Positions 8,905-50,173 of a stretch of 53,020 bases of DNA are shown one piece after another. Made by a program: the position numbers and the translations under genes. Origin of the DNA: a virus (Duplodnaviria > Caudoviricetes); IMG/VR virus record IMGVR_UViG_3300025101_000033, positions 1-53,020 of that record, one strand, 5' to 3'. Position 1 is the stretch's first letter. Each line of letters starts with the position of its first letter. The notes under the pieces are model-generated. The model was not told where the DNA came from. It did not search any database and saw only the letters and a program-made list of their open reading frames with translations.

Positions 8905-11900
8905 TTACCCCAGAAGCTTCCAGTTTCTTGACAGGCCGCCGCGAGTTGAGAATCCCCAAGTCGCGTTGAACTGTGGCCACTCAAGAACATAGAGTTTGTG
9001 TGTATACACAAAGTCTCTTTGAGTATCAATACCCCAACAATTAATGCGCTGTGTTTTCATGTTTGAGTCAATAACAGTTACTTGATAGTATGGCTTTCCC
9101 CCTTTGGTCTTTCGAGTTGTGACGCTTGTGGGGATACACCAACACTTGCCAAGTTCAGGATCATACTCTGAGATTGGCTTGATACCTTGCATGTCAAAGA
9201 ACTTGTATGCTTTCACGGGCACAACCATGTTGATAGGATAGATTCCAGTCAATGCTTGCAAGTGGTTGATACGCTCTCCTTTCGAAAAAGTCCCTTCGTC
9301 TTTGTACTTTTCAATGTTCTCTCCAAGTTTTTTCTTGTTCTTCGGTTTATCTACAACAATGGCTGACCAGAAGTGTTTATCGCCGAAGAACCTCTCATCC
9401 TGTAGAGATTGCATCGCTCCGGCTCGACACATGGCATCTAAGGACTTTTTGTTTACTTTCCGAGCCACGACACCTTTGTCGAACAAAAGGTCCTCTACGG
9501 ACAAAAATGGGCGCTTGAGGAGCACCTCGTCAATAGCTGCTTGCCCTAGTCCCTTGATTGTAGTCAGAGGAGGAACCAAGCATCCATCACGGACTTCCCA
9601 TTGAGTACCAGAAGTGTTGATGTCAAGTGGAGCGACTTTGTATCCGAAAGAGCGAGCGATGTTAATGGCAGCCTCTTTACGAGAGTCTGGTTCATGATCT
9701 AGAAAGGCAGAGATCCATTCGTCTTGATAGTAAGTCTGCAGCCAAGCACATTGATACGAGATGATTGAATACGGGATAGCATGATTCTTTGAGAAACCAT
9801 AGCCAGAGAAATATTCCATCTTACCCCACAATACTTTGGCAGATGCGAACGACATACCTTTCTTCTCGCAACCATTAATAAAACGTTCGTATAGATCTTT
9901 CTTCTTACGCATCTTGGTCTCGGACAAACCTTTCTTTGTCAAGAGCTTACGCAATACGTTAGCATCGGACATTGTGATCTTATCCCCAAGAACATTCACC
10001 AAGTTCATGATGTCTTCTTGAAACACAATAAGTCCGTATGTCTTACCTAGGATGTCCTCAATCAAAGGATGATCATAATCAACATCTTGGATTCCTTCTT
10101 TTGCAGAAACATACATCTTATCTACGTTCGCAGACAAAGGACCCGGTCGATAGATTGCTGATACGGTTGCTATCTCTTCCACCGAAGATACTCTTGCGTT
10201 GCGACCGAGTCGTTGCATGCCAGTATTCATGAACTGAAAGATACCGGCATACTTGCCTTGATGAAATACTTCTTCATAAACAGCAGGGTCTTCAAGATTT
10301 AATACTGATGGGTGTAGATTCTGCATGTACCACTCTTTACATTGTTCGAACGTTGGATTGCGCACACCTTCATTTCTCAAAATTCTCATGATTGCATCCT
10401 CAAATGTCTTGAGAGTTTCAAGGCCAAGGATGTCAAACTTGATGAAACCCAGTGGTTCTAGATGACGAACATTCATACCTTCAGACCATGGAGTTTGCCT
10501 GATGCCTTTCGATGTGATCAGTGGCATTTTGCTTGGGAGATAATCGCCAATGATGGCACCGGCGGCATGACGACCGATTGATCGAGGTTGACCAATCAGT
10601 CCAAAGACTTGCTCTTTAACTTCCGGGAATCTGTGAAAGAAATCTTGAAGAGTCTCAGAAAACTCACAAACTTCAGCAAAAGTCGGCGTGTATACACCAG
10701 CCTTGATGCCATGCTTTTTCTTTGCTCGAGGAGTTGCCTCAAGGAACATTGCTTTTGTTACTTTATTGACTTCGGTGAAATCAATGCCTTCGCGCTTCGA
10801 GATGTCTTTAATGAGAGATGATAACTGTAGAGTGTTGTAGTTCGAAATGAATGCAACAGAGTCTTCACCCCACTCCTCAACCATCTTGTCTTTGATGAGA
10901 GAGTTGTCTCCAAAGTCAATGTCAATGTCAGGAAAGCCATCGGATCCACGAGTCAGGAAGCGTTCAAAAGGTAGCCCCCACTTCATTGGATCGATCTGCG
11001 TAATCTTTAAAAGGAAAGCCAAGAGCGAACCTGCTGCACTACCACGAGCAGGACCAACAAAAGTATAATTCCATGAGAAATCAGTAATTGCTTTGGTCGC
11101 CAAGAAGTATTCACTAAATTTTTGAGACGCGATAACATCGAGTTCCTCCTCTAATCTTTTGCGATAGTGTCGCTTTGTAGTCTTGTCTGTACCTCGGAGA
11201 TAAACCCGTAGAGCTTCTTCTGCAATTTCTTTGAGGTGGTTGTCAGGATTGACACCAGACGGTACGACGAAAGAAGGAAGCTGAACAGAAGTGTCAGGGA
11301 GAAAATCTTCAATTTGCTCAAAAGCGATGTAGGCCGTGTTTGTGATTGACTCAATAACCAAATCATCGTCGTAAGTAAGATTGAGATCATCTGAATATCT
11401 AAGATATGATTCCCACATTTCTTGAGCATTTTTCGGATAAAGTTCATAGCCTATTTCTTCCACTGATTCTGGGATGTTATCGTCCATCCACGCAGGCATC
11501 TTGCCAAGCCAACCAAGTCGCTTGTATACTTCTCTATCTTTCCATGCATCAGGGCGTGGATAGTGAGAGTCACAAGTGGAGATCAGGCGAATACCAAGTT
11601 GCTTCGCTACTTTAATTAGGCAGCGATTTAACAGATGTTGTTCCGGAATATTATTCCATTGTAGTTCAGCATAGAATCTGTCTCCAAAGGTATCATGAAA
11701 CTTAGTAAGGTTAGCGATCATGTCCTCCACGATAGCATCCTCGCCCTCTTCTTGCTTCTTCCACATAGAACCAGCGGCAATACCCCCAAGACACGCTGTT
11801 GCCACAATGACGCCTTCCTGATGCTTCTTGAGAAGCTCCCAATCGATACGTGGTTTGCGATAGAAATAATCACCCGAGTAAGACTTTGAGACCATCTCAT

Positions 11901-12330
11901 AGATGTTCTCGAGACCTTTCTGGTTTTGTGCCAACAGAACGATGTGACGCTTGCGAGATAAGGCTCGCTTATCATTACGTTGCTCATCTTCGACAACCAT
12001 GGCAGAGTCACCACCGTCAACTTCTTTCGCCCGCTTTTTATCTGCAGCGATCTCGTTGCGAAGACTCTGCCACTCTTCCAGTGAATCAATGTAGTATGCT
12101 TCAACACCAAAAATGGGCTTGAAGTCTTTACCTTCAGCCTTCATCTCTTTTGCTCGAAGCAGTTGATAGGACAAACCATTCATAGAGCCATGGTCTGTGA
12201 GTGCAAGTGCACGAGATCCATTCTCATAGGCAAAGTCCATGTGTTCTTGTGGGAATCCAAACCCATCAAATAATGAAAAGCACGAGTGTCCGTGCAAGTT
12301 TACAAATTGTTCTTTTCTTAAGTTAGTCAT
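8905..12330 (-). CDS. dnaE: DNA polymerase III alpha subunit (family C) with PHP domain
   Basis: LHGHS...TDHG...GVEAY (PHP), RGSAAGSL, FERFL, PDIDIDF, KFDILGL, YRPGP, YGFSKNHA; ATG 12330 after GGAGGA. Confidence 0.97.
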   Translation of the reverse strand: MTNLRKEQFVNLHGHSCFSLFDGFGFPQEHMDFAYENGSRALALTDHGSMNGLSYQLLRAKEMKAEGKDFKPIFGVEAYYIDSLEEWQSLRNEIAADKKRAKEVDGGDSAMVVEDEQRNDKRALSRKRHIVLLAQNQKGLENIYEMVSKSYSGDYFYRKPRIDWELLKKHQEGVIVATACLGGIAAGSMWKKQEEGEDAIVEDMIANLTKFHDTFGDRFYAELQWNNIPEQHLLNRCLIKVAKQLGIRLISTCDSHYPRPDAWKDREVYKRLGWLGKMPAWMDDNIPESVEEIGYELYPKNAQEMWESYLRYSDDLNLTYDDDLVIESITNTAYIAFEQIEDFLPDTSVQLPSFVVPSGVNPDNHLKEIAEEALRVYLRGTDKTTKRHYRKRLEEELDVIASQKFSEYFLATKAITDFSWNYTFVGPARGSAAGSLLAFLLKITQIDPMKWGLPFERFLTRGSDGFPDIDIDFGDNSLIKDKMVEEWGEDSVAFISNYNTLQLSSLIKDISKREGIDFTEVNKVTKAMFLEATPRAKKKHGIKAGVYTPTFAEVCEFSETLQDFFHRFPEVKEQVFGLIGQPRSIGRHAAGAIIGDYLPSKMPLITSKGIRQTPWSEGMNVRHLEPLGFIKFDILGLETLKTFEDAIMRILRNEGVRNPTFEQCKEWYMQNLHPSVLNLEDPAVYEEVFHQGKYAGIFQFMNTGMQRLGRNARVSSVEEIATVSAIYRPGPLSANVDKMYVSAKEGIQDVDYDHPLIEDILGKTYGLIVFQEDIMNLVNVLGDKITMSDANVLRKLLTKKGLSETKMRKKKDLYERFINGCEKKGMSFASAKVLWGKMEYFSGYGFSKNHAIPYSIISYQCAWLQTYYQDEWISAFLDHEPDSRKEAAINIARSFGYKVAPLDINTSGTQWEVRDGCLVPPLTTIKGLGQAAIDEVLLKRPFLSVEDLLFDKGVVARKVNKKSLDAMCRAGAMQSLQDERFFGDKHFWSAIVVDKPKNKKKLGENIEKYKDEGTFSKGERINHLQALTGIYPINMVVPVKAYKFFDMQGIKPISEYDPELGKCWCIPTSVTTRKTKGGKPYYQVTVIDSNMKTQRINCWGIDTQRDFVYTHKLYVLEWPQFNATWGFSTRGGLSRNWKLLG

Positions 12331-12391
12331 TTGTCCTCCGTGATTCACTTAGTGTTCAATATTCTATACTAAACTGTTTGTTTGTGTTTAC

Positions 12392-13090: not shown

Positions 13091-14029
13091 TTACTTAGCT
13101 GCGATGCAACCGGGCGCCATTAGCTCCCTCATCTTAAATAGTCCCACCTCTTTGTGTTTACATTCTAGCATGATATCCATGCGGTGGCCAAACGTGTCGA
13201 TAGGCGTCCAATACGAGTCACTGTGGGCTTGTGGACGGATCTTAGGGTTATCATGCTCGATGGCTCGTGACTGGCTGTAATGGACAACAGGGACAACGTC
13301 ACCCCATGTTTTGAGTGCGAGTTCGACTGCTTCCTGCTGTGTTAGTCCGCCAGTGCACAGATGGTGATGGTGATAGTCATGGACAATTGGAATGCCGATG
13401 ACTTTGAACACACCATCGTATAGTTCTTGTGTTGAGTACAAAGACTCCTTGTCATCGTTCTCGACCGTCAGTCGCGTTTTGACTGCGTCTGATAGTCTTT
13501 GGAAATTCTTGCAAAAATTAGCAAGGGCCATAGGTTTATCATTGTATGCTGCTCCTACATGAATGTTAATTTTCGCCCAAGGTGAGCGAGGTTGGCACAA
13601 AAGATCCATCATCTTACCGTTGACTTCAAGGTCTTTGATGGTGTTCTGGACAACCTGCTCATTGGGAGAACATAGTTTGTTAAATGGGCCGGGATGGCAC
13701 GTTAGACGAATGTCATGTTCGTTCGCATAGAGTCCGGCTTCGTACAAGGCTTCTTCGATTGCATCAAAGTCCTTGAGATCTTCAAGATCGTATTCGGAAG
13801 CCCACGGAAAGATTTCCGAAGACATTCTGAAGAAGTGAATGTCGTGCTTCGCATTCCACTCGAGAATGGTCAGCAAGTCTGTGCAGTTTGCAAGGATGAT
13901 CTCCGACACATAGTCGAGACCTTTCTCTTGAAATGTTTTCTTACGCATTGTGCGATTGGTTGATACTTTTACTTTGCGCGATGATAGTTCAGTGTTGATA
14001 CATGCGTACCCTAAATTGTAATTTGTCAT
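13091..14029 (-). CDS. uvsE: UV damage endonuclease UvsE/UVDE
   Basis: LGYACIN, FRMSSEIFPWAS, HPGPF, ENDD, DYHHH, HYS, AHSD, MLECKHKE. Confidence 0.95.
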   Translation of the reverse strand: MTNYNLGYACINTELSSRKVKVSTNRTMRKKTFQEKGLDYVSEIILANCTDLLTILEWNAKHDIHFFRMSSEIFPWASEYDLEDLKDFDAIEEALYEAGLYANEHDIRLTCHPGPFNKLCSPNEQVVQNTIKDLEVNGKMMDLLCQPRSPWAKINIHVGAAYNDKPMALANFCKNFQRLSDAVKTRLTVENDDKESLYSTQELYDGVFKVIGIPIVHDYHHHHLCTGGLTQQEAVELALKTWGDVVPVVHYSQSRAIEHDNPKIRPQAHSDSYWTPIDTFGHRMDIMLECKHKEVGLFKMRELMAPGCIAAK

Positions 14030-14050: not shown

Positions 14051-14079
14051 AATATAACCGATTTACAATTACTTGTCAA
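14051..14079 (-). promoter_or_regulatory. Sigma70-type promoter upstream of uvsE
   Basis: TTGACA-17-TATATT. Confidence 0.8.
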
Positions 14080-14206
14080 GTAGTTTTTCTATCTTTTCTA
14101 AAAATTTTTTTTGTTGTTGGTATGAGAGATAATAAAAACAACAAAAAGCAATGGTGGGAATTATAATCCCAAAGAACATTGCTTTCCAGTAGATTGTCTT
14201 GAACAT
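14075..14206 (-). CDS. Small single-pass membrane protein (43 aa, not in the ORF track)
   Basis: MFKTIYWKAMFFGIIIPTIAFCCFYYLSYQQQKKFLEKIEKTT*; fills the intergenic gap. Confidence 0.5.
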
Positions 14207-14228
14207 TAAATCGACTGTTGTCACCTAT

Positions 14229-14657
14229 CTATCCTTCTTCTCCTCTCTCCTGCCACTCATAGGACGTTTTGTCTTCTTTGATTGGCCCACCTTTTGCCCA
14301 CGTTCTACATGATCTTGCGCTGTGGCATTTAAAATGATGCATCCAACAATAGCCTAGGCGACCATCATCATCAGAAGTTACGCCGGGCATACACGCATCC
14401 ATTCTGGGACTTATGTCAAAAGCAACACAATTGCTACAATTTGATTTTTTGGCAGCTTTCTCAGTTGTATTCCAGAAATCTGCTATGTCTTTCCAGTAAT
14501 CACCGGGCTCATCAACATTGAGAGGGCCGTATTGAATGTGCTCAGCTTTAATCGAAGCGTTACGATTTTTAGTATTGAGCTTCAAGTCTTTTGCCGCTGG
14601 TGGGCAAACCATCTCTATTGCTTTTTTAATTGCCTTGACTATTCTAATTCTAATCAT
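14229..14657 (-). CDS. Cys/His-rich putative metal-binding phage protein
   Basis: CSNCVAF...C...GYCWMHHFKCHSARSCRTW. Confidence 0.7.
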   Translation of the reverse strand: MIRIRIVKAIKKAIEMVCPPAAKDLKLNTKNRNASIKAEHIQYGPLNVDEPGDYWKDIADFWNTTEKAAKKSNCSNCVAFDISPRMDACMPGVTSDDDGRLGYCWMHHFKCHSARSCRTWAKGGPIKEDKTSYEWQERGEEG

Positions 14658-14856
14658 TGGTGTCGCACTCCTTTGGAAGTTGAGATTTCAAAGTTTCCTT
14701 ATAAACTTTGATGTCGGGTTGAACCCACTTTAATTTTGGACAATGGGTTTTGTGGTCCTCCTTGTCTTTCAAAAAAAGCTCCAAGGCGATCATGTCCCTT
14801 TTAAGGTCGTCGCACTCTGGTGCTGCGAATGTGAGTGATGCTAATAATAAAACCAT
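14650..14856 (-). CDS. Small secreted protein with three Cys
   Basis: Short signal-like MVLLLASLTFA-A followed by a polar body. Confidence 0.6.
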   Translation of the reverse strand: MVLLLASLTFAAPECDDLKRDMIALELFLKDKEDHKTHCPKLKWVQPDIKVYKETLKSQLPKECDTND

Positions 14857-14864
14857 ATCTTTAT

Positions 14865-15134
14865 CTATCTCGTTACCATTTGCTCGATCCGACCTAGAGA
14901 CCCTTTCATGTACTCGATGTCCTTTTCGATTCCAATTATTTGTCTTGCGTTGTCGTCCGAGCCTTGGAGCTTTTTTTCTAAGGTTTCGATAACCTCCTCT
15001 GCATCTCCAAGATCATTTCTCAGTTCAGCAACTTCTACGTTCATGTTCCATACCCATCCGGCAAGAGGGATTACAAGCATCCCAAGTCCCATCTGAATCA
15101 CTTTCCATACGTCATCTTTTGTTAGTGTAGCCAT
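14865..15134 (-). CDS. N-terminal transmembrane + coiled-coil protein (i-spanin/XhlA-like architecture)
   Basis: VIQMGLGMLVIPLAGWVW followed by heptad repeats; RBS GGAGG. Confidence 0.55.
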   Translation of the reverse strand: MATLTKDDVWKVIQMGLGMLVIPLAGWVWNMNVEVAELRNDLGDAEEVIETLEKKLQGSDDNARQIIGIEKDIEYMKGSLGRIEQMVTR

Positions 15135-15144
15135 GGTTGTCCTC

Positions 15145-15966
15145 CTACCATTTCTTGCAAGACCAATATCTTGCCGTCTTCTTATCTTTTGCTGTGTGAC
15201 ACTTGTGTCGTGCTCTGAATGATTTTCTTCGTTTAGGGTTTGACTTTTTGATTTTCATTTTTTTGTCGCCAAAGTTAATCTTCTTTGCTTTGACTCGACC
15301 CTTCTTATCTTTCTTACCTGAGTTAACATATACTTTGAACTTCTTTACGTCACCACGAGTTGGCTTGTTTAGTTGAACGGTTTTGCCTTGATACACGGCT
15401 TCGCCCATAAGATCAGGGCATCCGCAAGATGCTTCTTGTAGTGTCTCAAACAGGCATGCACCGCAGGCATAGCCGCCCTCTTCAAGGGTCGCATCTTCAA
15501 ACATTTCAAGAATTGATTCGTCACCTTCGTACATCAAACCTTCTCTCAAGTCTGGGTATAGATCGTCAACATCGCCGGGATCATCTGGTCCCATGCTAAT
15601 GCCTCGGTCTGCATAACCAGGCTTCATTCCTAGGGCAGACATTCGATCTTGCGTTAGTCGATCTTGTTTTGCTCGTTCTGCTGCATCTTCGGCATCACGT
15701 CTATCTTGGTCGTCGATGTCTCTTTGGGTTCTCTCGGCTTCAAAGCTTGCCAGTTCTTCGGGAGTATAGAACTGAGATTTATCGAGGTTTTTCATGTCCT
15801 CGTATGCCTTCACCAGTTCCTCTTCCGTGGCCTTACCTTGCGATCTGAGCTTCTTAACGCGGAAAAATTCGTCGCGAAGAATCTTCTCTGCTTCCATCTG
15901 TTGCAGAATACCTTCGTCCAAAGTCTCTATAATTATTTTTTTTAATTTTTCTTCTGATAATTTCAT
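15145..15966 (-). CDS. Leader-bearing putative internal head protein with basic C-terminal domain
   Basis: MKLSEEKLKKIIIETLDE; C-terminus KKFKVYV...NFGD...RRKSFRARHKC...ARYWSCKKW. Confidence 0.7.
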   Translation of the reverse strand: MKLSEEKLKKIIIETLDEGILQQMEAEKILRDEFFRVKKLRSQGKATEEELVKAYEDMKNLDKSQFYTPEELASFEAERTQRDIDDQDRRDAEDAAERAKQDRLTQDRMSALGMKPGYADRGISMGPDDPGDVDDLYPDLREGLMYEGDESILEMFEDATLEEGGYACGACLFETLQEASCGCPDLMGEAVYQGKTVQLNKPTRGDVKKFKVYVNSGKKDKKGRVKAKKINFGDKKMKIKKSNPKRRKSFRARHKCHTAKDKKTARYWSCKKW

Positions 15967-16355
15967 TTCTTTTTTCTTCCATCCTTTTGTCGCACATTTT
16001 TAGCCTTACCTTTTCTATTAGGGTTCGGATCCTTCTTTCTCTTTTTGGCAGCTCTTTTATCTCTCTCTTTTTTGCTTAACTTCGCCCTATCATCGGCATC
16101 TCTACAGTATGGCTTGGTCTTTTGACCAGGTTGTTTCGCGCATGGCTTTCCGTCATACTTGCCACCGGTTTGTACCCAGCCGCCACCTTTAAACCAATCT
16201 CTCAAGCTATAACCTTTACTCTTTGCAGATTTACCATCTCGCTTGCCGCCTTTCTTTTTCTTCTTTTTCTTGCGTTTCTTCCTCTTCTTCTCGTCAAGGA
16301 CCGCAGACAGCTCTTCTTTGATGATTTGCTCTAGTTGTTCTCTGGTAATTTCCAT
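15963..16355 (-). CDS. Leader-bearing, very basic putative internal head protein
   Basis: MEITREQLEQIIKEELSAVLDE, then poly-Lys and LRDWF...WV...PC...PYCR. Confidence 0.7.
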   Translation of the reverse strand: MEITREQLEQIIKEELSAVLDEKKRKKRKKKKKKKGGKRDGKSAKSKGYSLRDWFKGGGWVQTGGKYDGKPCAKQPGQKTKPYCRDADDRAKLSKKERDKRAAKKRKKDPNPNRKGKAKNVRQKDGRKKK

Positions 16356-16388: not shown

Positions 16389-17561
16389 TTATTTCTTCTT
16401 TTTGTTCATCGCAGCCGTCTTTCTTTTAGAGGCTTCTTTTCGTTTCTCAGCATACTCGTACGCTTTCTTGAGTCTTGCTTTGGCTTTTGGATCTTTGGCG
16501 TTTTTGTATGCTGCTCTGGATCTCTGATGTATGAGGTTGATAATCTGTGATTGGCGCTTGTGTGACTTGGATTTAAAACTAGCCTTTGAAAGAGTGTCTT
16601 TAACGTCTTGAACTGATGAGAACTTGACGGATACCGTGTCAGTTGGATCTTCGTCGGTGTAAAGTCTACGACCAGAGTCCTTTGGCTTCTTGCCGGTGCC
16701 CTTCTTTGGGTCTCCTTCGACGACTTTCTTTTGCTGTGTTTCCAAGCCCTCTTCTGCTTTCACACAATTACGATAGGTTCGACCAAACATCTTCTTGGTC
16801 TTTCTCTTCTTGTGAGTCTTGTATCCTTTCTGGCATCTTTCTTGTAGAACAACTTCGAGTTCTTCTTTGACAATCTCATCCACCATGGCCGCCTGTTGGT
16901 TTCGAGGCCCCAACCATTCTTCATATTCTTCTAGACAGTTTCCTCTTCGCTGAGGAATTGTGCTTAATCGACCACCGTCGCTATAGCCGGCTATAAATTC
17001 TTCTCCATCTTCGTTGGTGTAAATTCGAAATTGAATAGTGACTGTTAGTAAACCAAACATTTCACCTTCAACCCACTCTTGTCCCGGAACCTGTGCTCCT
17101 TCAGTGTACAAACCTAAGAGTTGTTCATCAGAGAAAACTTTATTTTTAGACCCAATGGTGTGCCTTATGTTCCAAATGTCAGCTGTGATTGGCACATTCA
17201 TTATTATAATCTTGAGTATCTCACTGTCATCTTCGACAAAGATTGAATCACTTCCAAAAACCGGTTGCGACATGAATTCATAGAGCTTAACCGGTTCTTC
17301 TGTCCATGCGTCTGGATCGTCCAGTGAAGGAATAAACTGAGGATTTTGAATGCATTCTGGTGCCGGCATGCCTTCTTCGTTTTGACCCAAAGAATGTAAT
17401 AAATTATAATCAGAACCACATCCAGTAGCCAGTGCTCCGCCTGTGGCTGCCATCATTTGACAAAACTTTCGCCTTGTTATTTCTTTAATGGCACTCTCTA
17501 GTTTGACATTATGGATCTCTTCTAGAATAATTCGACTCAATTCCTCTCGGGTTAGTTCCAT
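16389..17561 (-). CDS. Leader-bearing modular protein with an internal Tat-lipoprotein-like signal and basic C-terminal modules
   Basis: MELTREELSRIILEE...IKE-ITRRKF...ALATGC; later CQKGY...NCV and DPKKGTGKKP..SGRRLYTDE. Confidence 0.7.
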   Translation of the reverse strand: MELTREELSRIILEEIHNVKLESAIKEITRRKFCQMMAATGGALATGCGSDYNLLHSLGQNEEGMPAPECIQNPQFIPSLDDPDAWTEEPVKLYEFMSQPVFGSDSIFVEDDSEILKIIIMNVPITADIWNIRHTIGSKNKVFSDEQLLGLYTEGAQVPGQEWVEGEMFGLLTVTIQFRIYTNEDGEEFIAGYSDGGRLSTIPQRRGNCLEEYEEWLGPRNQQAAMVDEIVKEELEVVLQERCQKGYKTHKKRKTKKMFGRTYRNCVKAEEGLETQQKKVVEGDPKKGTGKKPKDSGRRLYTDEDPTDTVSVKFSSVQDVKDTLSKASFKSKSHKRQSQIINLIHQRSRAAYKNAKDPKAKARLKKAYEYAEKRKEASKRKTAAMNKKKK

Positions 17562-17565
17562 ACCA

Positions 17566-18192
17566 TTATCTTCCGTAAGTTTTGCAAGGGTTCATGCCAC
17601 ATCCGCAGTTTTTGACCTCTTTGACTATCTTAATCGTTTTTTTATCTGATAAGATGTAGTCACCATCCTTATGTTGACCTACGTTTGGCATTCCATCTAG
17701 AGCTTTTACGATCTCGTCTTTCATTTCTTCTCCAAACTCTTTCAAAAATGGATCCATACCGGCAGCGCCACCTTCGTCGCGAAGAATCTTTTCAATCTTC
17801 TTTGGGTCAACATGAACAAAGCCTTTCTTCGCCATGTCTGTATGGTCTTTTTTGACATTGGCAACATGCTTCTTGCCAGTCTTAGGGTCAAACATGTCGT
17901 GCTTAGAAAACTCTTCGTTTAGTGACTCGTTTTTCTTTGACTTGTTGCCCCAGTTGGCAGCACCAACCTTGCGACATTTGACAAGCGCACCGGAAGCATA
18001 AGCGGAAGGCCAGACGTCATAGCGAGACTTTACCTTGTGATAACAAGCGTCTTTCTTCTTAGCTTTTGCCTTCTTTTTCTTCTTGCGTCTCTTCTTTTTG
18101 GCGGCTTTTCGCTTCTTGCCTTTTTTCTCATCAATGACGGCATCAACCTCTTCTTTGATGATTTTGCGTAATTCTTCATTCGAAATTTTCAT
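17566..18192 (-). CDS. Leader-bearing basic putative internal head protein
   Basis: Start MKISNEELRKIIKEEVDAVIDE at 18192 (RBS AGGAG); poly-Lys; DACYHKVKSRYDVWPSAYASGALVKCR. Confidence 0.7.
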   Translation of the reverse strand: MKISNEELRKIIKEEVDAVIDEKKGKKRKAAKKKRRKKKKKAKAKKKDACYHKVKSRYDVWPSAYASGALVKCRKVGAANWGNKSKKNESLNEEFSKHDMFDPKTGKKHVANVKKDHTDMAKKGFVHVDPKKIEKILRDEGGAAGMDPFLKEFGEEMKDEIVKALDGMPNVGQHKDGDYILSDKKTIKIVKEVKNCGCGMNPCKTYGR

Positions 18193-18212
18193 GTCAAAGT
18201 CTCCTTCTGACA

Positions 18213-18220
18213 TAAATAGT
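18213..18220 (-). promoter_or_regulatory. Late-promoter-like motif ACTATTTA
   Basis: Intergenic, about 21 bp before ATG 18192. Confidence 0.65.
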
Positions 18221-18236
18221 AACAAATGAATAAGAA

Positions 18237-18848
18237 TTATAGGTTTAAGCCAAACAGTTGCCTTAAAAATCTTTTTATAACATTATCTTTTTGTTCTTTT
18301 GTTTGGGCTTCATGGAAGGCCCAAGAGTATGAAGATTTTTCTTTTTTAATTTCCTCATCGACCCTTTTGATTTCCAACAACAAGCAGTCGATAGCCTCAC
18401 TATATTCTCCAATGAAAATGTTGTGCTTGTCTACGATGTCAAACAAGTCTCCCCACTTCCCTTCTTCTTTCGCTAAAGTTGCTTTTTTAAACGATTCTGT
18501 GTATTCGTACTTTCTCGGGTCACCGTCCTTAAGTAAGTCGGGGTGCAACTTTCTGGCGACTTGTCTGTAGATTTTTTTGAAATCATGGATCTTGTCTCTC
18601 TTCTCTTCTTCGATTACAGATTTTCTTAATTTGGTAGTTTGATTATCAATGAACATCATGTCAACTTTTCTAGAGTTTTTTTCGTTTAATTTGTGGAGGT
18701 CGACATTATTTTCTGCGCACCATTTCCTGTGGTAAATGTCAAACTCTAAATGAACATCTTTCAAAGTTTCTCTAACGATTTGTAATTCAAACTTTTTGCT
18801 GCGAAAGTTATTTAAGTGTTTTAAGAATTGCAACCTAGACTTCATCAT
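18237..18848 (-). CDS. J-domain (DnaJ-like) protein
   Basis: FKKIYRQVARKLHPD...FKKATLA (HPD motif), in an internal position. Confidence 0.8.
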   Translation of the reverse strand: MMKSRLQFLKHLNNFRSKKFELQIVRETLKDVHLEFDIYHRKWCAENNVDLHKLNEKNSRKVDMMFIDNQTTKLRKSVIEEEKRDKIHDFKKIYRQVARKLHPDLLKDGDPRKYEYTESFKKATLAKEEGKWGDLFDIVDKHNIFIGEYSEAIDCLLLEIKRVDEEIKKEKSSYSWAFHEAQTKEQKDNVIKRFLRQLFGLNL

Positions 18849-19740: not shown

Positions 19741-20444
19741 GGCTTCTCCTTTTTTTGCTCGAGATTCCATGCTTGCTCAAAAGTCATCTTCTGGTTCAGC
19801 TCTGGTAGTACGAATCTCTTTTCAAAATCAAATTTAACTTTTTTATAGTATCTCTTATCTCCACGTTGCCATGAAAACTCACCTTTTATGTCATTTTTCT
19901 TAAACATTCTTTGAGTTTTTATTCTAACAATTCCATTGCCATACGATGGATCTAGTAACTCATCATCGGACATTCTCGAGATAACAGTGAAGTCTTTGAC
20001 TATCTTGGACACATTGCTTCTTCTTGTCTCGTAAAAAAAGATTCTTTTACAAAAGTCCTCTTCTGATTCAATGATCATAGTGTCATGAGGTTTACCAGCC
20101 CTCCAATAAAAATCATCAAAAATCTGATTCATACCTGTCGGTTCGCCATCAAAAATTTCAAGCTTTTCATCGATAACAATTTTTGTATTACCCTTCGTTA
20201 TCAACTCTTTGTTGTCTATTCTAAAAGATGAAACATTGCCACCATGTAACAAAAGAGACGTGAGGCTCATGGCAAAAATTAAGTTTGGAATTAGTTCTCG
20301 AGCACTCTGCACATTAAACTCCGAAAAGTCAATGTTATCAAACTCGTCGGAAAGGTGATGGAAAACAAAATCGTCAAGCAGTATGCATTTTTGTTGTGTT
20401 CTCCATGCATACATTAGCGAAGCGGCAGATTTGCCGATTATCAC
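19689..20444 (-). CDS. Hypothetical protein with degenerate Rossmann-like N-terminus
   Basis: IIGKSAASLMYAW...CILLD beta-alpha-beta pattern without an intact GxGxxG. Confidence 0.55.
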   Translation of the reverse strand: MIIGKSAASLMYAWRTQQKCILLDDFVFHHLSDEFDNIDFSEFNVQSARELIPNLIFAMSLTSLLLHGGNVSSFRIDNKELITKGNTKIVIDEKLEIFDGEPTGMNQIFDDFYWRAGKPHDTMIIESEEDFCKRIFFYETRRSNVSKIVKDFTVISRMSDDELLDPSYGNGIVRIKTQRMFKKNDIKGEFSWQRGDKRYYKKVKFDFEKRFVLPELNQKMTFEQAWNLEQKKEKPWTMWKKLMSKEKTWLD

Positions 20445-21226
20445 TTATTACTCTCTGGTCCAAATCTAGAAAAGAAGTCACTGATGTCTGCAGCAGAAGG
20501 TAGTCTATCGTTTTGGGGGACAAAGTCTTCTGGTGGTTCCGGTAATTCTTCTGGTAATTCGTCAAATTTAATTTTCGGATTTAATGCAATGGAATCTAAA
20601 CCAATTTGACGCGTGTTTGTTATGGCACTTTCTAATTCGTTTGACTTTTCATTTCCCAAAAACCAATCATCCATTTGACCGAAAAAAGCAGCACCAACAC
20701 CCGGATTACCTAAGTATCCAGTGTTGTTCATCGACCCTTGAGAGATAAATCTTTTGAAAAATTCGCCAATATTTTCTTTCATCAAGTGTAATTCTCTGAT
20801 TGCATTTTGTTGCACAGCGCTTAGGTTTTCTAGGTCTTTGTTGCCCCGCAGAGATGAATAGCCGGCAGAGTCAACGATAGATTTTAAGTCTTTTAGGTAT
20901 AACTCTGCTTTTATTTTTACAATTTCATTTTCTAATTTAGGGAGATGTCTGCGCCAATGAATCAAGTACCCTCTGCGTAGTTTATTGTAAATTTCTGATT
21001 GTTCATCTTCTGGTAGTGTAGAGACTGCTTTTGAGATTAGTTCGCCAAATTTTTCTTCGATGATGTCTTTTGTTTCGTTAGCGACAATGTCATCGCCTAC
21101 AAAGTGTTTTATAAAAACATCCACAGAACCTGGTTCAACACCTGTCAAGAGGTCGTAAAGTCCGGCAAATCTTCCTTCGTTTAATGTGAACTTTTTCCAT
21201 TCATTCAGAATCTTCTTCATCGACAT
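20441..21226 (-). CDS. Putative internal head protein (variant leader)
   Basis: MKKILNEWKKFTLNE, with tandem L-N-E sites. Confidence 0.55.
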   Translation of the reverse strand: MSMKKILNEWKKFTLNEGRFAGLYDLLTGVEPGSVDVFIKHFVGDDIVANETKDIIEEKFGELISKAVSTLPEDEQSEIYNKLRRGYLIHWRRHLPKLENEIVKIKAELYLKDLKSIVDSAGYSSLRGNKDLENLSAVQQNAIRELHLMKENIGEFFKRFISQGSMNNTGYLGNPGVGAAFFGQMDDWFLGNEKSNELESAITNTRQIGLDSIALNPKIKFDELPEELPEPPEDFVPQNDRLPSAADISDFFSRFGPESNK

Positions 21227-21452: not shown

Positions 21453-22150
21453 TCGCGAAGTTCTCGGTATGCTCCCACAGAGAAAGGCCAAATCTCTGCT
21501 GCAATGTCTAGACATGCTCTAGCAACCTGCTGTATTTCCCATTGTGCTCCTTCGTGCAGTCTGAGATCAATAAACTTCAAAAGGTTGGATAGGTTGACTG
21601 TTCCATAGTATTTTGCGTACAAGTTTTGTGGCAAGACTCCTCTAGCCTGCTCTCGACAAACACCAGCCTCTATCAACTTGTCAAATAAATCTAAAGACAT
21701 GTCATGCCACTTTGCTACTGCCTCAGTTGATTTAGAATAGGTATCCAAGAACAAAGGGGTAATAGTTGGATCTTGTTGATCTTCTAAGTTCGACGCTTGT
21801 CTATTGCTCTTGTGTTGGGTTCTGTATGTCGGTGGCTCATAGAATCTCAAGTGGACCTCAGTGTATCGTCTAGAAATTTCATTGTAAGCCCATGTTCTAT
21901 GTCTCATGTGTTGTGAGCGTACAAACATAGGCACCTCGAACAAAAACGTGATCGAATTGTGCTCAAATGGTGACGTATGCTTGTGTTGTATAAGATACTT
22001 AATTAGTTTTTTGTCCCTTGGAGTCAATGGTTTTGTATTGTCTTGGCCAAAAGAAACACGCGCAGCATTAGCAATCATTTTATCATCGCCTACGTGCTGT
22101 ACATAGGAAACTTTACCAATACCATCTCCGTATAACTCTACTTCTTTCAT
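21449..22150 (-). CDS. thyX: Flavin-dependent thymidylate synthase
   Basis: AARVSF, HTSPFEH, RHRTWAYNEISRRY, REQARGVLP, LRLHEGAQWEI. Confidence 0.97.
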   Translation of the reverse strand: MKEVELYGDGIGKVSYVQHVGDDKMIANAARVSFGQDNTKPLTPRDKKLIKYLIQHKHTSPFEHNSITFLFEVPMFVRSQHMRHRTWAYNEISRRYTEVHLRFYEPPTYRTQHKSNRQASNLEDQQDPTITPLFLDTYSKSTEAVAKWHDMSLDLFDKLIEAGVCREQARGVLPQNLYAKYYGTVNLSNLLKFIDLRLHEGAQWEIQQVARACLDIAAEIWPFSVGAYRELRE

Positions 22151-22908
22151 CTATCCGCCTTTCGATGTACAAAAAATTCACCCCTACGAGACCTAGCCTC
22201 AGTTGCATTTTTGGGAGGAACTGGTACCATCATTGATTCCATAATTGCAGAGAATCGTTTTTCTGGTTGTTTTCTCTCCGGACCTTTAGCTAACTGTGTA
22301 TAGAATTCTTGCTCAAGATCACCAAACTTAAAGTTATGGAAAGTCATGTCAACAGAGCCATCTCTCTTGAGATAAAAAGCATCAGTCGATTCTGCATCTG
22401 GTGGTTTAAAAAAGAAACTATCTTGATTGTACTTTGCAGCAAGTTCCATACCTAGATTTTTTAATTCTTCAATTCCTAATCCGGGTCGACCTGGTTGCGC
22501 CATAACTAGAAATCCGGCCTCTGGTTCATTGGTGTCAACTCTAGATTCTTCTCCAGTGTCAGGATTAACTAATTTTTCTTTGTAGCCGCCCATCACTGGT
22601 GTGAAACCAAATCCGGCTGCTCTTATCTCTTGTTTCATTGATTCTCGATTTTGTTCGTTTCTTCCTGCTTGCTCTTCGGCTGCTCCAGGAGGGCAGGGTT
22701 CTCCATAAGCCAATCCAAGCTCCGCTTGGCATGTTCTATCAGGTGTAATTACAATAAAACCTGCTTCCATGTATTTTCCTTGAAGCGCTGTCATGGTCGT
22801 CTCATCTAAACGATGCATCTTGTAAGAAGACTTTGAAGTTTTGAAGATTGTTTTCTCTTCGATAACTTCTAAAATAATTTTTTTTAATTTTTCACTTGTC
22901 AGTTTCAT
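22147..22908 (-). CDS. Leader-bearing SAM lyase (T3 SAMase/DUF3293)-like protein
   Basis: MKLTSEKLKKIILEVIEE leader; FIVITPDR...RNEQNR..M..EIRAAG...GGYKE...EPEAGFLV...LGMELAAKYNQDSFF. Confidence 0.6.
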   Translation of the reverse strand: MKLTSEKLKKIILEVIEEKTIFKTSKSSYKMHRLDETTMTALQGKYMEAGFIVITPDRTCQAELGLAYGEPCPPGAAEEQAGRNEQNRESMKQEIRAAGFGFTPVMGGYKEKLVNPDTGEESRVDTNEPEAGFLVMAQPGRPGLGIEELKNLGMELAAKYNQDSFFFKPPDAESTDAFYLKRDGSVDMTFHNFKFGDLEQEFYTQLAKGPERKQPEKRFSAIMESMMVPVPPKNATEARSRRGEFFVHRKADR

Positions 22909-32235: not shown

Positions 32236-32252
32236 GTATTTTTTTTAAAAAG

Positions 32253-32326
32253 TACACTTGACAGGATTCGAACCTGTGACCGTCCGCTTAGAAGGCGGAT
32301 GCTCTATCCAGCTGAGCTACAAGTGC
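32253..32326 (-). tRNA. tRNA-Arg(UCU), CCA not encoded
   Basis: GCACTTG/CAAGTGT acceptor stem, GCTC/GAGC D arm, TCCGC-CTTCTAA-GCGGA anticodon arm, ACAGG-TTCGAAT-CCTGT T arm. Confidence 0.97.
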
Positions 32327-46910: not shown

Positions 46911-49900
46911 TTAAACGAATTCCGCGCCGGTCTTTGTGATAACAAAATCAACAACGACAAATTCAATAGCACGAGCGGGCTTAACAAAAATCTTAGCGTA
47001 TAAGATGTTTCTATCAATCAAATCTGGTGTGGTAGTTGTCTCATCCAAAACCAATTTGTAATCTGATAATCCGAATCGTGCTCGAGCATCTGAAAGGATT
47101 GGTTCAACTTGTGATTGAAATCTTCCCCATGTAACAGGTAGGTTCGGATCGAACAACAAATTCTTCGCAACAACGTTAACTCGAGACTTCAAGTATAACA
47201 GTAATCTTCGAACATTGATTCTATCGAGAGCAGATGCGTCTGCTTGAAGAGTTTTTTGACCGAACACTACTACACCCTCAGCAGGGAAAGAAGCGATTGG
47301 GTTAACATTTCTTTCGTACAAACGATCTCTTTCTCTAGAGTCAACACGTCGTCTTGCCTGAAGAACCTTAGGACCTCTAGGGCCTCCAAGTGTTCCAAGC
47401 CCACCACGATTAAATCCTGCAGGTGCAAACCATACGTCAGTTTGTGCCTGAGACTTAGCCAATGCTCCAAGAGCAGCAACAGATGGCGGAAGCCATACGT
47501 ATTGTCCACCATTTAAGCTATCGACAGCTTGTACATACGGGAAGTAAGCAGCAGCATAAGAAGAGTTCAAGTTTCTTTGTTTAAGTTGATCAACAACTTC
47601 GTCAACACTACCAATAGAAGTATCTTCTGTTTGAGCAGATGTTCTCTCAGCTTGAGGCAAGTAGTCGCCTTGAAGGTCAATGATTGCCAACACGTCTTGT
47701 CGTGTCTCGGCAACATCAATCAAGCGATTAGTTATAACCGGTTTACGAACACCAGGCATGAGTAGCAAGTTTGCAGGAACAATTTCTGGATCCAAGATTG
47801 AATCGATTGCTTTGTTGATTGTATAATGAGTATAGTCAGCAGCATCATCTCTCGCAGAAGAGATACGTCCGTCACGGAGTGGCTCTTTTTCTGTGATGTC
47901 AAATCCTTCGTGTCCACCCCACATTGGCATCATGAACTGACGCACGTTTTTGTCGAGAAGTTGTCCGAAAGAATTCAATTGAGAATAAGATTTATCAACA
48001 GGCGCATTTGCGTCATAGGCACCAGATACATAAGTTACTACGTTTGTACTAGTGTTAATCTTGATGTCGTCCAAAGTGAACACATAAGAATATTCTAATG
48101 CCGCAGAGTTGGTGCTTGGATCATAAGAGTCAACATCGACAGGAAGTCTTCTCAAGTAATCAACATAATCTGGATCATTTTGATTTGATGTTGTTGAAAG
48201 TTTTGGACGGATTCCCCAGTAAGCACGGTATGGATTTGATGCCCCACCTTCTGTTCCATTTTGTCTCAATGGAATTGATGGGAATTCAAATGATGCAGAG
48301 TAAGCAACAGGTCCGGCAACAAATAGGTTAGATGCACCACCAGCAGCTGGCATAGCGAGATTACCTTTAACAAAAGCCTGAGCAAAGTTTGTGCTGTCGG
48401 TACCATCAGTACCAGTTGCGATTGTTATGCGTGAAAACGTATCGACGGGATCTGTAATTACAACATTGTAATAAGGACCAATCGAGTCAGCTACAATTGT
48501 AACAAGACCAGTTGAAGTTTCAGATGCACTATAGTCATCTATTGAGTTAATCAAAACAGCAACAGCTTGTGCTGTTAGAGTATCTGTGTTTGTTGTCGCT
48601 GGGTGTATTTCAGCTACCTTAGTGGTAGCATTGAAAGTTGTATCAGCTGCCCCCGCTGAAGCAACAAAATTAATTGTGTGAGCCCCTAGGTCTGGGTGAG
48701 TAAATACAATTTGATCACCGACAGCAAGTCCATCAGAAAAATCAATTGTTCTAGTCGCCTTAGCTCCATGACCGGTATCGGTTGCCAAGGCATTAGCACC
48801 GGTTGATCCATCCACAAGAGTAAATCCTTTTGGACGAACAGGGCCACGGAAACCAGCAGGAAGAAGACCTTGTCCACCGTTTTCTTGATCGATTACTGTG
48901 TCGATTTCAACATAAACTAAGTCAGATTGATTTTGGTATTCACCTTTTGTGATGTACCTTCTATCTTCTTCGTCCCATGATAAGAACTGGGTTCCAATTC
49001 TTTTTCCGATGTAATCTACAGAAGACTTGTTCAAGTTAACGCCTGTATATCTTTCGACTGTTTGTCCTGCCATGTTTTTGATGCATACCGTAAAAGATCC
49101 ATAAGGATTAACAACAGGGTTAGGGGATTCAGCAATCTCTTCGATTCCAACCATGTAATTCTTTTGGATGTCATCTCCAACATGTAATGTTTTCAAGCGG
49201 AACAATTGAACTTGATTCTTTTCTTGTTGAGAAACAACCCAACCAGATTGAGCTTCTTTCGCTCCCTCTTTGTGATCAGCCCAGTTAACAGAGCCAGATT
49301 GAAGAGGAAGTAAGATTCCGTATGCCGCACCGGCAACCAATCCATCTAAAGAGCGGTCAACTAGTTCTCTTGTAAAAGATTCACCAAGCCAATAAGTTTT
49401 TCTAGATGAAGCAGCAATTGTGTCTTCATTTACTAATTGAGGATTTGTGTTAAATGCGCCTCTAATGTATTGTGAGTGATTTCTATCAAAATTAAAAGGA
49501 ATTGTTCGTCCAACTTTTGTATTGCTTTCGTCATAGATTGCAAGTTTAAAGCCACAATTATTACCAGCAGACTTTAGGAACTCACCAGTTCTTGTAATAT
49601 CATTAGATCCTGACGTAGAATTTCCAACGAGGCCTAAGTAACCTTTGTTTGCGTAAAAAACAGCAGCCAATGATCCAGTCGTCATTGTGTTGGCCGACGC
49701 TGAAGCGATAACAAAAAGACCGTAAGCTGTACCATTTGTTGCATGGGCAGACCCCAGCGTACCAGAAACTTCCCAACCAGCCTTACCAGTTGTATTGTTG
49801 GAAGGTGTCACAGCTTGCTCTCCTGCAAGTCTAACGATTGTTATTGGTGATTCTTCAGATGCCAACCATGCTTGAGCAGCATAGGATGCATACGTAGGAC

Positions 49901-50138
49901 CAGTTGTGTTTCCATCACGCCACATGTCACCTTGTACACCGCTTCCACCAGGAACGGGTGCGCCAAATACTGTAATAAAGTCATCCAACGTGCGTACTTT
50001 TACGGGCTTATTAGCAGGTCCTTTTCTGGTGCGTCCAATAATAATTGGTCCTTCTGCTTCCACCTCGGCAGGGATGAAACTTTGGTCGATCTCACGGATT
50101 TCAACTCCGGGTGATAGAAAATCAAATTTTTTAGCCAT
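46911..50138 (-). CDS. Contractile tail sheath protein (gp18-like)
   Basis: FLSPGVEIREID, WFAPAGFNRG, NPIASFP, FGQKTLQ, SALDRINVRRLL, KPARAIEF. Confidence 0.97.
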   Translation of the reverse strand: MAKKFDFLSPGVEIREIDQSFIPAEVEAEGPIIIGRTRKGPANKPVKVRTLDDFITVFGAPVPGGSGVQGDMWRDGNTTGPTYASYAAQAWLASEESPITIVRLAGEQAVTPSNNTTGKAGWEVSGTLGSAHATNGTAYGLFVIASASANTMTTGSLAAVFYANKGYLGLVGNSTSGSNDITRTGEFLKSAGNNCGFKLAIYDESNTKVGRTIPFNFDRNHSQYIRGAFNTNPQLVNEDTIAASSRKTYWLGESFTRELVDRSLDGLVAGAAYGILLPLQSGSVNWADHKEGAKEAQSGWVVSQQEKNQVQLFRLKTLHVGDDIQKNYMVGIEEIAESPNPVVNPYGSFTVCIKNMAGQTVERYTGVNLNKSSVDYIGKRIGTQFLSWDEEDRRYITKGEYQNQSDLVYVEIDTVIDQENGGQGLLPAGFRGPVRPKGFTLVDGSTGANALATDTGHGAKATRTIDFSDGLAVGDQIVFTHPDLGAHTINFVASAGAADTTFNATTKVAEIHPATTNTDTLTAQAVAVLINSIDDYSASETSTGLVTIVADSIGPYYNVVITDPVDTFSRITIATGTDGTDSTNFAQAFVKGNLAMPAAGGASNLFVAGPVAYSASFEFPSIPLRQNGTEGGASNPYRAYWGIRPKLSTTSNQNDPDYVDYLRRLPVDVDSYDPSTNSAALEYSYVFTLDDIKINTSTNVVTYVSGAYDANAPVDKSYSQLNSFGQLLDKNVRQFMMPMWGGHEGFDITEKEPLRDGRISSARDDAADYTHYTINKAIDSILDPEIVPANLLLMPGVRKPVITNRLIDVAETRQDVLAIIDLQGDYLPQAERTSAQTEDTSIGSVDEVVDQLKQRNLNSSYAAAYFPYVQAVDSLNGGQYVWLPPSVAALGALAKSQAQTDVWFAPAGFNRGGLGTLGGPRGPKVLQARRRVDSRERDRLYERNVNPIASFPAEGVVVFGQKTLQADASALDRINVRRLLLYLKSRVNVVAKNLLFDPNLPVTWGRFQSQVEPILSDARARFGLSDYKLVLDETTTTPDLIDRNILYAKIFVKPARAIEFVVVDFVITKTGAEFV

Positions 50139-50173
50139 CGACAAATCTCCTTAAATAAAATTTTATTTCTTAT

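Follow-up and report, generated by a model that had tools for sequence, protein, structure and literature searches.

The gene and its product

The DNA considered here is record IMGVR_UViG_3300025101_000033 of the IMG/VR collection, a virus of the class Caudoviricetes, and the whole analysed stretch of 53,020 nucleotides is referred to below as the window. It is a 53-kb fragment, estimated to be 29% complete, with its genes on the minus strand, and the nearest cultured relatives of its T4-type baseplate protein and its tail sheath (1077 amino acids) are T4-like myoviruses, at less than 60% identity. Our subject is an open reading frame (ORF) of 390 amino acids at 16389..17561 (-), which as a whole belongs to no Pfam or PHROG family and appears to determine a modular precursor, composed of an N-terminal leader, a segment resembling the twin-arginine translocation (Tat) signal of a lipoprotein, an acidic core, a second leader-like helix and two basic modules, B and D.

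Inspection of the sequence alone (the original prediction) had suggested that a 27-amino-acid leader ending in I-K-E is followed by a segment running to a cysteine, and this is borne out: the region in question, 17418-17561, corresponds exactly to codons 1-48 of the ORF, which begins with the net acidic leader MELTREELSRIILEEIHNVKLESAIKE (27 amino acids, ending I-K-E) and continues with ITRRKFCQMMAATGGALATG-C. The leader (residues 1-27; 17481..17561, -) comprises a tag of 22 amino acids that recurs throughout the lineage, ending at Glu22, plus S-A-I-K-E, so that glutamates close both K-L-E at residues 20-22 and I-K-E at 25-27, the latter (I25-K26-E27) being an [LIVM]-x-E site. The next segment (residues 28-48; 17418..17480, -), given borderline support by profile TIGR01409 and marked out by conservation, contains the Tat-type motif T-R-R-K-F-C-Q, with its arginine pair encoded at 17469-17474, a Gly/Ala-rich uncharged hydrophobic region (h-region) and a lipobox-like A-T-G-C ending in Cys48 (17418-17420). 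The h-region is only weakly hydrophobic (mean Kyte–Doolittle value 0.67), as had been remarked at the outset. Between codon 1 and the arginines the reading frame contains no further ATG, GTG or TTG (Val19 is GTC and Leu21 is CTA), and the Tat-like segment must therefore always be made with the leader in front of it.

The rest of the protein consists of an acidic alpha+beta core (residues 49-226; 16884..17417, -; isoelectric point (pI) 4.1), containing conserved Cys70 and Cys209; the second leader-like helix, VDEIVKEELEVVLQE (residues 227-241; 16839..16883, -), with [LIVM]-x-E glutamates at 229, 233 and 241; the basic Cys-pair module B (residues 242-282; 16716..16838, -), which ends V-V-E282; and the basic module D (residues 283-390; 16392..16715, -), defined by a database match described below and by a model in which it ends as a predicted helical hairpin. 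The suggestion that a second leader-like segment closes the acidic domain was correct, as VDEIVKEELEVVLQE separates the core from a very basic tail (residues 242-390, pI 10.3). A motif search found such a helix after the core in 17 of the 21 available sequences; it is missing from P0013 and from the fragments P0015, P0016 and P0019.

Conservation of the Tat-type motif and lipobox

How convincing is the resemblance to a Tat lipoprotein signal? The motif T-R-R-K-F-C-Q fits the Tat consensus, S/T-R-R-x-F-L-K, and the Tat signal domain profile TIGR01409 (cut-off 16.7 bits) aligns from residue 28, with scores of 16.9 bits for residues 28-87 alone, 15.9 bits for residues 1-87 and 13.2 bits for the full-length protein. 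A six-frame scan of the whole window revealed no other match to this profile (17.1 bits at this site). When a regular expression for RR-x-F, an uncharged stretch and [GAS]-C was applied to all six frames of 287 kb, it found only the window gene and a near-identical copy in locus L006, plus one antisense match in two loci. The profile support is borderline, so the stronger argument for the Tat/lipobox segment comes from its conservation.

Homologs came from a search of 5.8 billion proteins (14 proteins, the window's own among them), from a search among shorter proteins (two fragments) and from an exhaustive search of 1.84 billion representatives (eight proteins, five of them new), and conservation was counted over 21 sequences in total, 20 of which span the Tat/lipobox segment. 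The second arginine and the phenylalanine are kept in all 20, and the first position of the pair is Arg in 13 and Lys in seven. An uncharged stretch of 11-14 residues (mean Kyte–Doolittle values 0.67-1.46) is present in every one of the 20, position -1 of the lipobox is always Gly or Ala, and the lipobox cysteine occurs in all 21 sequences. Moreover, an [LIVM]-x-E ends just ahead of the arginines, by two residues in 19 cases and by three in the remaining one, in about four independent lineages that include three distant ones. The position of the motif within the protein is more variable: the arginines begin at residue 30 in the window protein and lie at residues 21-45 in 12 of the 20 homologs (the window protein included) and at 68-260 in the other eight.

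The three most distant homologs (P0020-22; 26-33% identity) have RRGFLKG or RRQFCK, with differing h-regions, and two of them (P0020 and P0021) show the textbook R-R-G-F-L-K-G. A twin basic pair, a phenylalanine, an uncharged stretch and a small residue followed by cysteine are thus retained even where the residues around them differ, a pattern that speaks for selection on a signal rather than for chance or a fading relic, and the supposition that the Tat-type motif and lipobox cysteine are real is upheld. Among the 1.84 billion representatives there was no bacterial homolog of the core, all eight matches being leader-bearing and phage-like, so a recent capture of a bacterial gene is unsupported. 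For a stand-alone form that would begin at the Tat motif, shorter proteins offered only the two fragments, both at contig ends, and no longer, fused forms of the protein were found.

A further feature of this segment is the Cys34-Gln35 pair directly after R-R-K-F (Cys34 is encoded at 17460-17462). It is invariant in the 14 closer homologs, and in the distant ones a cysteine is kept either at the position after the phenylalanine or else within the h-region.

The leader as an N-terminal tag throughout the lineage

Leaders of the same kind, recognized by a regular expression in the window and in the collected loci of relatives, open 41 distinct ORFs, five of them in the window (15145-15966, 15963-16355, 16389-17561, 17566-18192 and 22147-22908). 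The cargoes behind them are unrelated to each other, some being basic and some acidic. The consensus is M-K-[LI]-T-K-E-x-L-K-[QR]-I-I-K-E-E-L-[ED]-A-V-L-x-E, with Glu at position 22 in 27 of the 41 leaders, and [LIVMF]-x-E occupies positions 20-22 in 24 of them, its frequency elsewhere in these proteins being 0.024 per position. Among the window genes the leader DNA is only 50-73% identical, and at 88 identical residues the same codon is used in 45; codons have drifted while residues have stayed, and it is evidently as a peptide, not as DNA, that the leader is conserved. It corresponds to no family or function in Pfam or PHROGs, and a tblastn search with a leader of 23 amino acids (low-complexity filter on) gave no match in 50,697 phage records. 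We considered the leaders of ribosomally synthesized and post-translationally modified peptides as a parallel, and rejected it by reasoning: the cargoes here are conserved domains of 40-190 amino acids, and the tag ends in x-L-x-E, not in double-Gly.

A second N-terminal tag, M-K-x-[IV]-[LM]-x-x-W-[RK]-[KG]-F...L-x-E, was found in the window at 20441-21226 (-), at L049:1420-2370 and L050:1450-2202, and in an ORF of 212 amino acids in L040. In two relatives (G002 and G005) it precedes T-R-R-Q-F-L-A and T-R-R-D-L-I-R, which score 18.4 and 16.9 bits with TIGR01409; these two proteins have a homologous domain of about 200 amino acids, lack a lipobox and are unrelated to the core family described here. 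In the window ORF and in L040 this tag is attached to unrelated cargo with no arginine pair.

Shuffled modules and candidate cleavage sites

The homologs prove to be chains of small modules in free order. Module B, which lies behind the core in the window protein, is ahead of the Tat segment in P0002-4 and P0018, and P0018 has as many as five modules (258 residues) ahead of its arginines. An export signal with freely ordered modules on either side would make sense only if proteolysis separates the modules. The window protein has nine [LIVM]-x-E sites (Glu 14, 15, 27, 95, 212, 229, 233, 241 and 282), seven of which fall in the leader, in the second helix or at the junction between B and D. At that last junction, module D is 49% identical over 72 amino acids to gp40 of the Pelagibacter phage HTVC033P, a stand-alone protein of 96 amino acids whose N-terminus coincides with the junction after E282. 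This was the only match when the phage collection was searched with the window protein.

The modules have further counterparts in T4-like cyanophages. Module B is weakly similar to part of a ‘virion protein’ of cyanophage S-SCSM1 (43% identity over 30 amino acids; pairwise expect value (E) 6e-4), and modules A, B and C all occur in this protein, SSCSM1_29, the label ‘virion protein’ being that of the GenBank record. Mass spectrometry of CsCl-purified S-SCSM1 virions is reported to have detected 45 proteins (PMC9602691). Modules A and C, which in the window are carried by neighbouring genes, are up to 87% and 97.5% identical, respectively, to parts of T4-like cyanophage proteins.

These small basic Cys modules look like highly conserved, horizontally shared units; yet the phage uses a replicase of the Pol III alpha type, and psbA was found neither in the window nor in four relatives, so that it is probably not a cyanophage.

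The acidic core

The core modelled alone by AlphaFold2 gave an alpha+beta domain with a predicted local distance difference test score (pLDDT) of 80.3 and a predicted template-modelling score (pTM) of 0.76. The fold is without close counterparts: VIA-align against 48,161 chains gave a best Z of 3.6 (searches with the whole protein being dominated by the C-terminal helical hairpin), Foldseek gave no match at E <= 1e-3 against PDB and BFVD, the ESM Atlas yielded no usable match, and neither Pfam nor PHROGs has a family for it. Cys70 is invariant and Cys209 is present in at least 90% of sequences, which would suit a disulfide formed outside the cytoplasm.

The core domain is absent from the five relatives searched, which fits the idea of accessory cargo. 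A scan of viral contigs for the core gave a single leader/module match, and a scan of metagenomes gave six contigs of 2.4-4.1 kb, of use for synteny only.

A prohead protease in related phages

Could the lineage cut its own proteins after glutamate? Pol III alpha led to relatives, three of which are complete genomes of about 184 kb. A prohead protease of the T4 gp21 type (Peptidase_S77) is encoded in four of the five relatives searched, including all three complete ones (in the complete relative G001 at L036:1411-2037), and its identity is confirmed by phrog_207 (E 1e-60). In two of the three complete genomes the protease gene has a leader-bearing ORF as its immediate neighbour, and all three have, in the scaffold position, an ORF that begins with a leader-like helix. 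Proteases of the gp21 type are reported to cut C-terminal to glutamate (PMC5694885, PMC9026906). In T4, the internal proteins have a common capsid targeting sequence of 10 amino acids, in which residues 8 and 10 govern processing, and which can carry foreign proteins into the head, from where they are delivered into the infected cell (PMC3012670, PMC5694885, PMC9026906). In the T4 record, the adjacent genes ipII and ipIII encode an identical 10-amino-acid N-terminus ending I-A-E.

A proposed packaged precursor, and the alternatives

Taken together, these features lead us to a reading that we hold only tentatively, while preferring it to the others: the ORF may encode a precursor from which an uncultured marine myovirus of the T4-like kind derives proteins that are carried inside the virion and ejected; a cut by the prohead protease would expose a Tat-lipoprotein signal to be used after ejection. 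We infer that the tag takes the precursor into the prohead and that the S77 protease cuts it at the junctions. In outline, the leader of 22-27 amino acids would act like the T4 capsid targeting sequence, bringing the precursor into the prohead core, where the gp21-type protease would cleave it C-terminal to the glutamates of the [LIVM]-x-E junctions (E22/E27, E229-241 and E282). The small basic modules would thereby be set free, as would an acidic product of some 20-24 kDa with the new N-terminus I-T-R-R-K-F..., a Tat-type lipoprotein signal. This acidic product would be ejected with the DNA into the next cell and, as a ready-made, foldable protein, could be taken up by the post-translational Tat pathway of the host, to be lipidated at Cys48 and anchored in the envelope ahead of any phage gene expression. 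Tat is the sole export route that accepts finished, folded proteins, so the design would at least be coherent. The export and lipidation of the released protein by the next host's machinery, and the part played there by the core, are speculative, and the roles originally proposed for it (superinfection exclusion or envelope repair) are pure speculation. The most general form of the idea, in which capsid leader, protease unmasking and next-host Tat export with a lipid anchor make up a targeting relay over two generations, and shuffled polyproteins are packaged as a general cargo system, strikes us as possible but doubtful.

Several points weigh against this proposal. Where the Tat signal itself is concerned, the full-length window protein falls below the TIGR01409 cut-off, ten full-length homologs compared with that profile included only one above the cut-off (P0021, 20.1 bits), two below it and seven with no match, and Pfam TAT_signal gave no match at E up to 10. 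Seven of the 20 homologs have Lys-Arg in place of Arg-Arg. At lipobox position -3, where the bacterial consensus ([LVI][ASTVI][GAS]-C) calls for Leu, Val or Ile, members of the main clade have Ala and P0020-22 have Ser or Gln, though relaxed lipoboxes do occur. As to the postulated cleavage, with the arginines at residues 21-45 in 12 of the 20 homologs, ordinary Tat recognition in the producing cell needs none, and the second Tat-like family, behind its different short tag, looks like ordinary Tat signals. As to packaging, neither a head gene nor a prohead protease is present in the 29%-complete window; the absence of the core from the five relatives means that prohead protease and core have never been seen in one genome; and the label ‘virion protein’ of SSCSM1_29 is that of its GenBank record.

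Some of these points lead directly to the principal rival, namely that the protein is exported by Tat in the ordinary way in the cell that produces it. The leader would then be a long n-region, either incidental or with a role before export such as chaperone docking; lipidation and a cut by signal peptidase II at Cys48 would follow, and the protein would have its role, perhaps exclusion or control of lysis, in the infected cell's own envelope. A Tat signal can ordinarily have its arginines as far in as residues 30-31, and the same holds for the 12 homologs with the pair at 21-45; the uncut N-terminus (residues 1-87) scores 15.9 bits. The claim that the signal is ‘hidden’ behind the leader is affected by this: it is right in that the segment is never translated without the leader, but at residues 30-31 of the uncut precursor the arginines of the window protein are not really hidden. 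Phage lipoproteins made after infection, such as Llp of T5, are well known, and a DnaJ-like gene lies directly upstream in the window, L006, L011, L040 and G002. The two homologous proteins with the second tag, whose Tat-like motifs lie behind 16-27 residues, likewise look like plain Tat signals; however, since that tag is common to cargo without an arginine pair, and its L-x-E ends 2-3 residues before the arginines, this second family cuts both ways. Ordinary export is harder to reconcile with the eight of 20 homologs in which 68-260 residues of folded-looking basic modules precede the arginines, with a leader common to 40 other ORFs that lack the signal, and with modules that cyanophage annotation associates with the virion; and it would send the same type of module to different compartments in different homologs, depending on the side of the signal on which it lies. 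Overall we regard ordinary export as doubtful, though it is the alternative to be taken most seriously.

A second alternative is that the segment is now no export signal at all, being either a vestige of a captured bacterial Tat-lipoprotein gene or a hydrophobic helix that serves another purpose: it might insert an ejected protein into a membrane from outside, act as an anchor in the prohead core or form part of the fold. The borderline profile scores and the silence of Pfam TAT_signal would then be expected, as would the short, weakly hydrophobic h-region (mean 0.67-1.46) and the unusual, invariant Cys34-Gln35 after the phenylalanine; hydrophobic stretches without RR occur in other leader-bearing proteins (L007:1198-1866 and L036:2054-2626), and AlphaFold2 draws residues 5-39 as a single helix, at low confidence. 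We think this unlikely in view of the persistence of the signal features, canonical RRGFLKG included, at 26-33% identity, and of the lack of any bacterial core homolog among the 1.84 billion representatives. It is more improbable still that the leader is no packaging or cleavage tag, but an oligomerization or coiled-coil helix or a linker that promotes recombination, its proximity to the Tat segment being a by-product of shuffling. Such a role would account for leader-like sequence also occurring internally, between core and tail modules, and would sit easily with the lack of a database family or function and of any tblastn match in the phage records. Against it, the leader is conserved as a peptide with drifting codons, contrary to what a recombination cassette acting at the DNA level would show; it has a fixed length, a fixed Glu22 and a hydrophobic residue two places ahead; it stands at the very N-terminus of 41 ORFs; and leader-bearing ORFs adjoin the prohead protease gene.

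The interpretation offered with the original prediction has thus survived in part: motif, lipobox, glutamate junction and shared tag are all there, the profile support is borderline, and packaging, cleavage, ejection and Tat export are predictions. Were the relay to exist, phages could hijack the post-translational export pathway of a newly infected cell and so deliver a finished protein to its periplasm or outer membrane almost as soon as the DNA has entered. Ejected effectors of this kind would form a new class, and Tat would be put to a novel use. At the same time, an abundant, uncultured group of T4-like marine phages would be shown to have a packaging tag of 22 residues and to carry polyproteins as cargo, and a start could be made on assigning functions to the small basic modules found widely in the genomes of cyanophages and pelagiphages. 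On the more conservative reading, what is left is still a rare, conserved phage Tat-lipoprotein with an unmatched fold.

Neighbouring genes and other features of the window

The gene is flanked by other leader-bearing genes. Upstream, at 17566..18192 (-), is a leader with a Lys-rich run and module C (the module that is up to 97.5% identical to T4-like cyanophage proteins), which is syntenic in L006, L008, L010 and L011. The mechanically assigned start of this ORF (17566-18225, -) is a TTG at 18225; the ATG at 18192, where the conserved leader begins, is the likelier start. Downstream are a leader with module A (15963..16355, -; up to 87% identical to cyanophage proteins, including a ‘structural protein’ of S-B68) and a weaker leader with a C-terminal module E (15145..15966, -; phrog_7595). 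The fifth leader-bearing ORF (22147..22908, -; 253 amino acids), with an acidic cargo, has no PHROG family.

On short metagenome contigs the order is the same as in the window: a DnaJ-like gene, the leader gene with module C, the gene with Tat segment and core, and further leader genes. In the window the first of these is a 203-amino-acid ORF (18237-18848, -) with a weak match to the J-domain (DnaJ, E 0.0012, under the Pfam cut-off), and it lies directly upstream of the leader/Tat genes also in L006, L011, L040 and G002 (L049). A chaperone link between the DnaJ-like gene and the cargo proteins is possible. After the gene with Tat segment and core, four loci (L007:1198-1866, L008:1783-2463, L009:1396-2076 and L010:1732-2394) have a leader-bearing protein of about 220-230 amino acids with a stretch like a membrane span, the place of which is taken in the window by the gene with leader and module A.

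About 1 kb from the cluster of leader genes is a gene for a UV-damage endonuclease (UvdE; 13091-14029, -; E 9e-61). In the T4 record (64939-66415), ipII and ipIII adjoin denV; the two enzymes have not been shown to be related, and this may be coincidence. Between UvdE and the leader cluster (14069-15134, -) are small ORFs with membrane-like or signal-like N-termini, among them ORFs of 89 amino acids (14865-15134, -; a hydrophobic span and then a helical region, conserved in G005), 68 amino acids (14650-14856, -) and 51 amino acids (14069-14224, -), which could be lysis or envelope proteins.

Elsewhere, the window encodes a GroEL-like chaperonin cut by the window end (1-1188), a Pol III alpha-type replicase (8905-12348), the unusually long tail sheath of 1077 amino acids (46911-50144) and tRNA-Arg(TCT) (32252-32326), and further genes include those for DnaB, RecA, a class II-like ribonucleotide reductase, ThyX and an amidase.

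Comparison with known systems

On sequence grounds, the system is a variation on the theme of the T4 internal proteins. Like IPI, IPII, IPIII and Alt, the proteins described here come from adjacent genes that share a short N-terminal tag, closed by hydrophobic-x-Glu, and carry cargo that is unrelated and in many cases basic; the lineage has a protease of the gp21 type; the cargo is hypervariable among related phages, the core being missing here from five relatives; and the genes lie outside the head module, near a gene for repair of UV damage (denV in T4, UvdE here). The differences are that the tag is of 22 amino acids and of another sequence, that the cargoes are chains of shuffled modules (polyproteins) and that one cargo would start with a Tat-lipoprotein signal, packaging and cleavage being putative here. 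A limited literature search (top-ranked results) gave no description of a Tat signal on a packaged phage protein.

The cyanophage cluster GC0119 (P-SSM2 gp114, S-B68 QBP06184 and S-SCSM1 SSCSM1_29) is likewise built from modules A, B and C, small, basic and with cysteines, its proteins being labelled ‘structural protein, cyanophage-only cluster GC0119’ in S-B68 and ‘virion protein’ in S-SCSM1. Unlike the proteins of the present lineage, they have no N-terminal leader, Tat segment or acidic core, and their genes are within the structural block, P-SSM2 gp114 being between gp15 and gp16.

With the Tat lipoprotein signals of bacteria and archaea (TIGR01409 plus lipobox), the segment shares T-R-R-K-F, a Gly/Ala-rich uncharged stretch, a small residue followed by Cys and a spacing from RR to Cys of 19 residues in all, and distant homologs have RRGFLKG. 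It differs in being phage-encoded and never at the translated start, lying always behind a leader and in eight of 20 homologs behind 68-260 residues, in having Cys-Gln rather than Leu-Lys after the phenylalanine, and in a lipobox position -3 that is not Leu. The superinfection-exclusion lipoproteins of phages, such as T5 Llp, Cor and Ltp, act in the host envelope and are likewise phage-encoded with a lipobox cysteine, but they are expressed from the injected genome, carry N-terminal signals of the ordinary kind and have no similarity of sequence or fold to the core.

A further analogy is with the bipartite presequences of chloroplast lumen proteins, in which two targeting signals are arranged in series: once a protease in the first compartment has cut off the first signal, a Tat signal is uncovered for the second step. 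In the present proposal a virus capsid would serve as the first compartment, and the second step would fall to another cell; the comparison does not imply homology.

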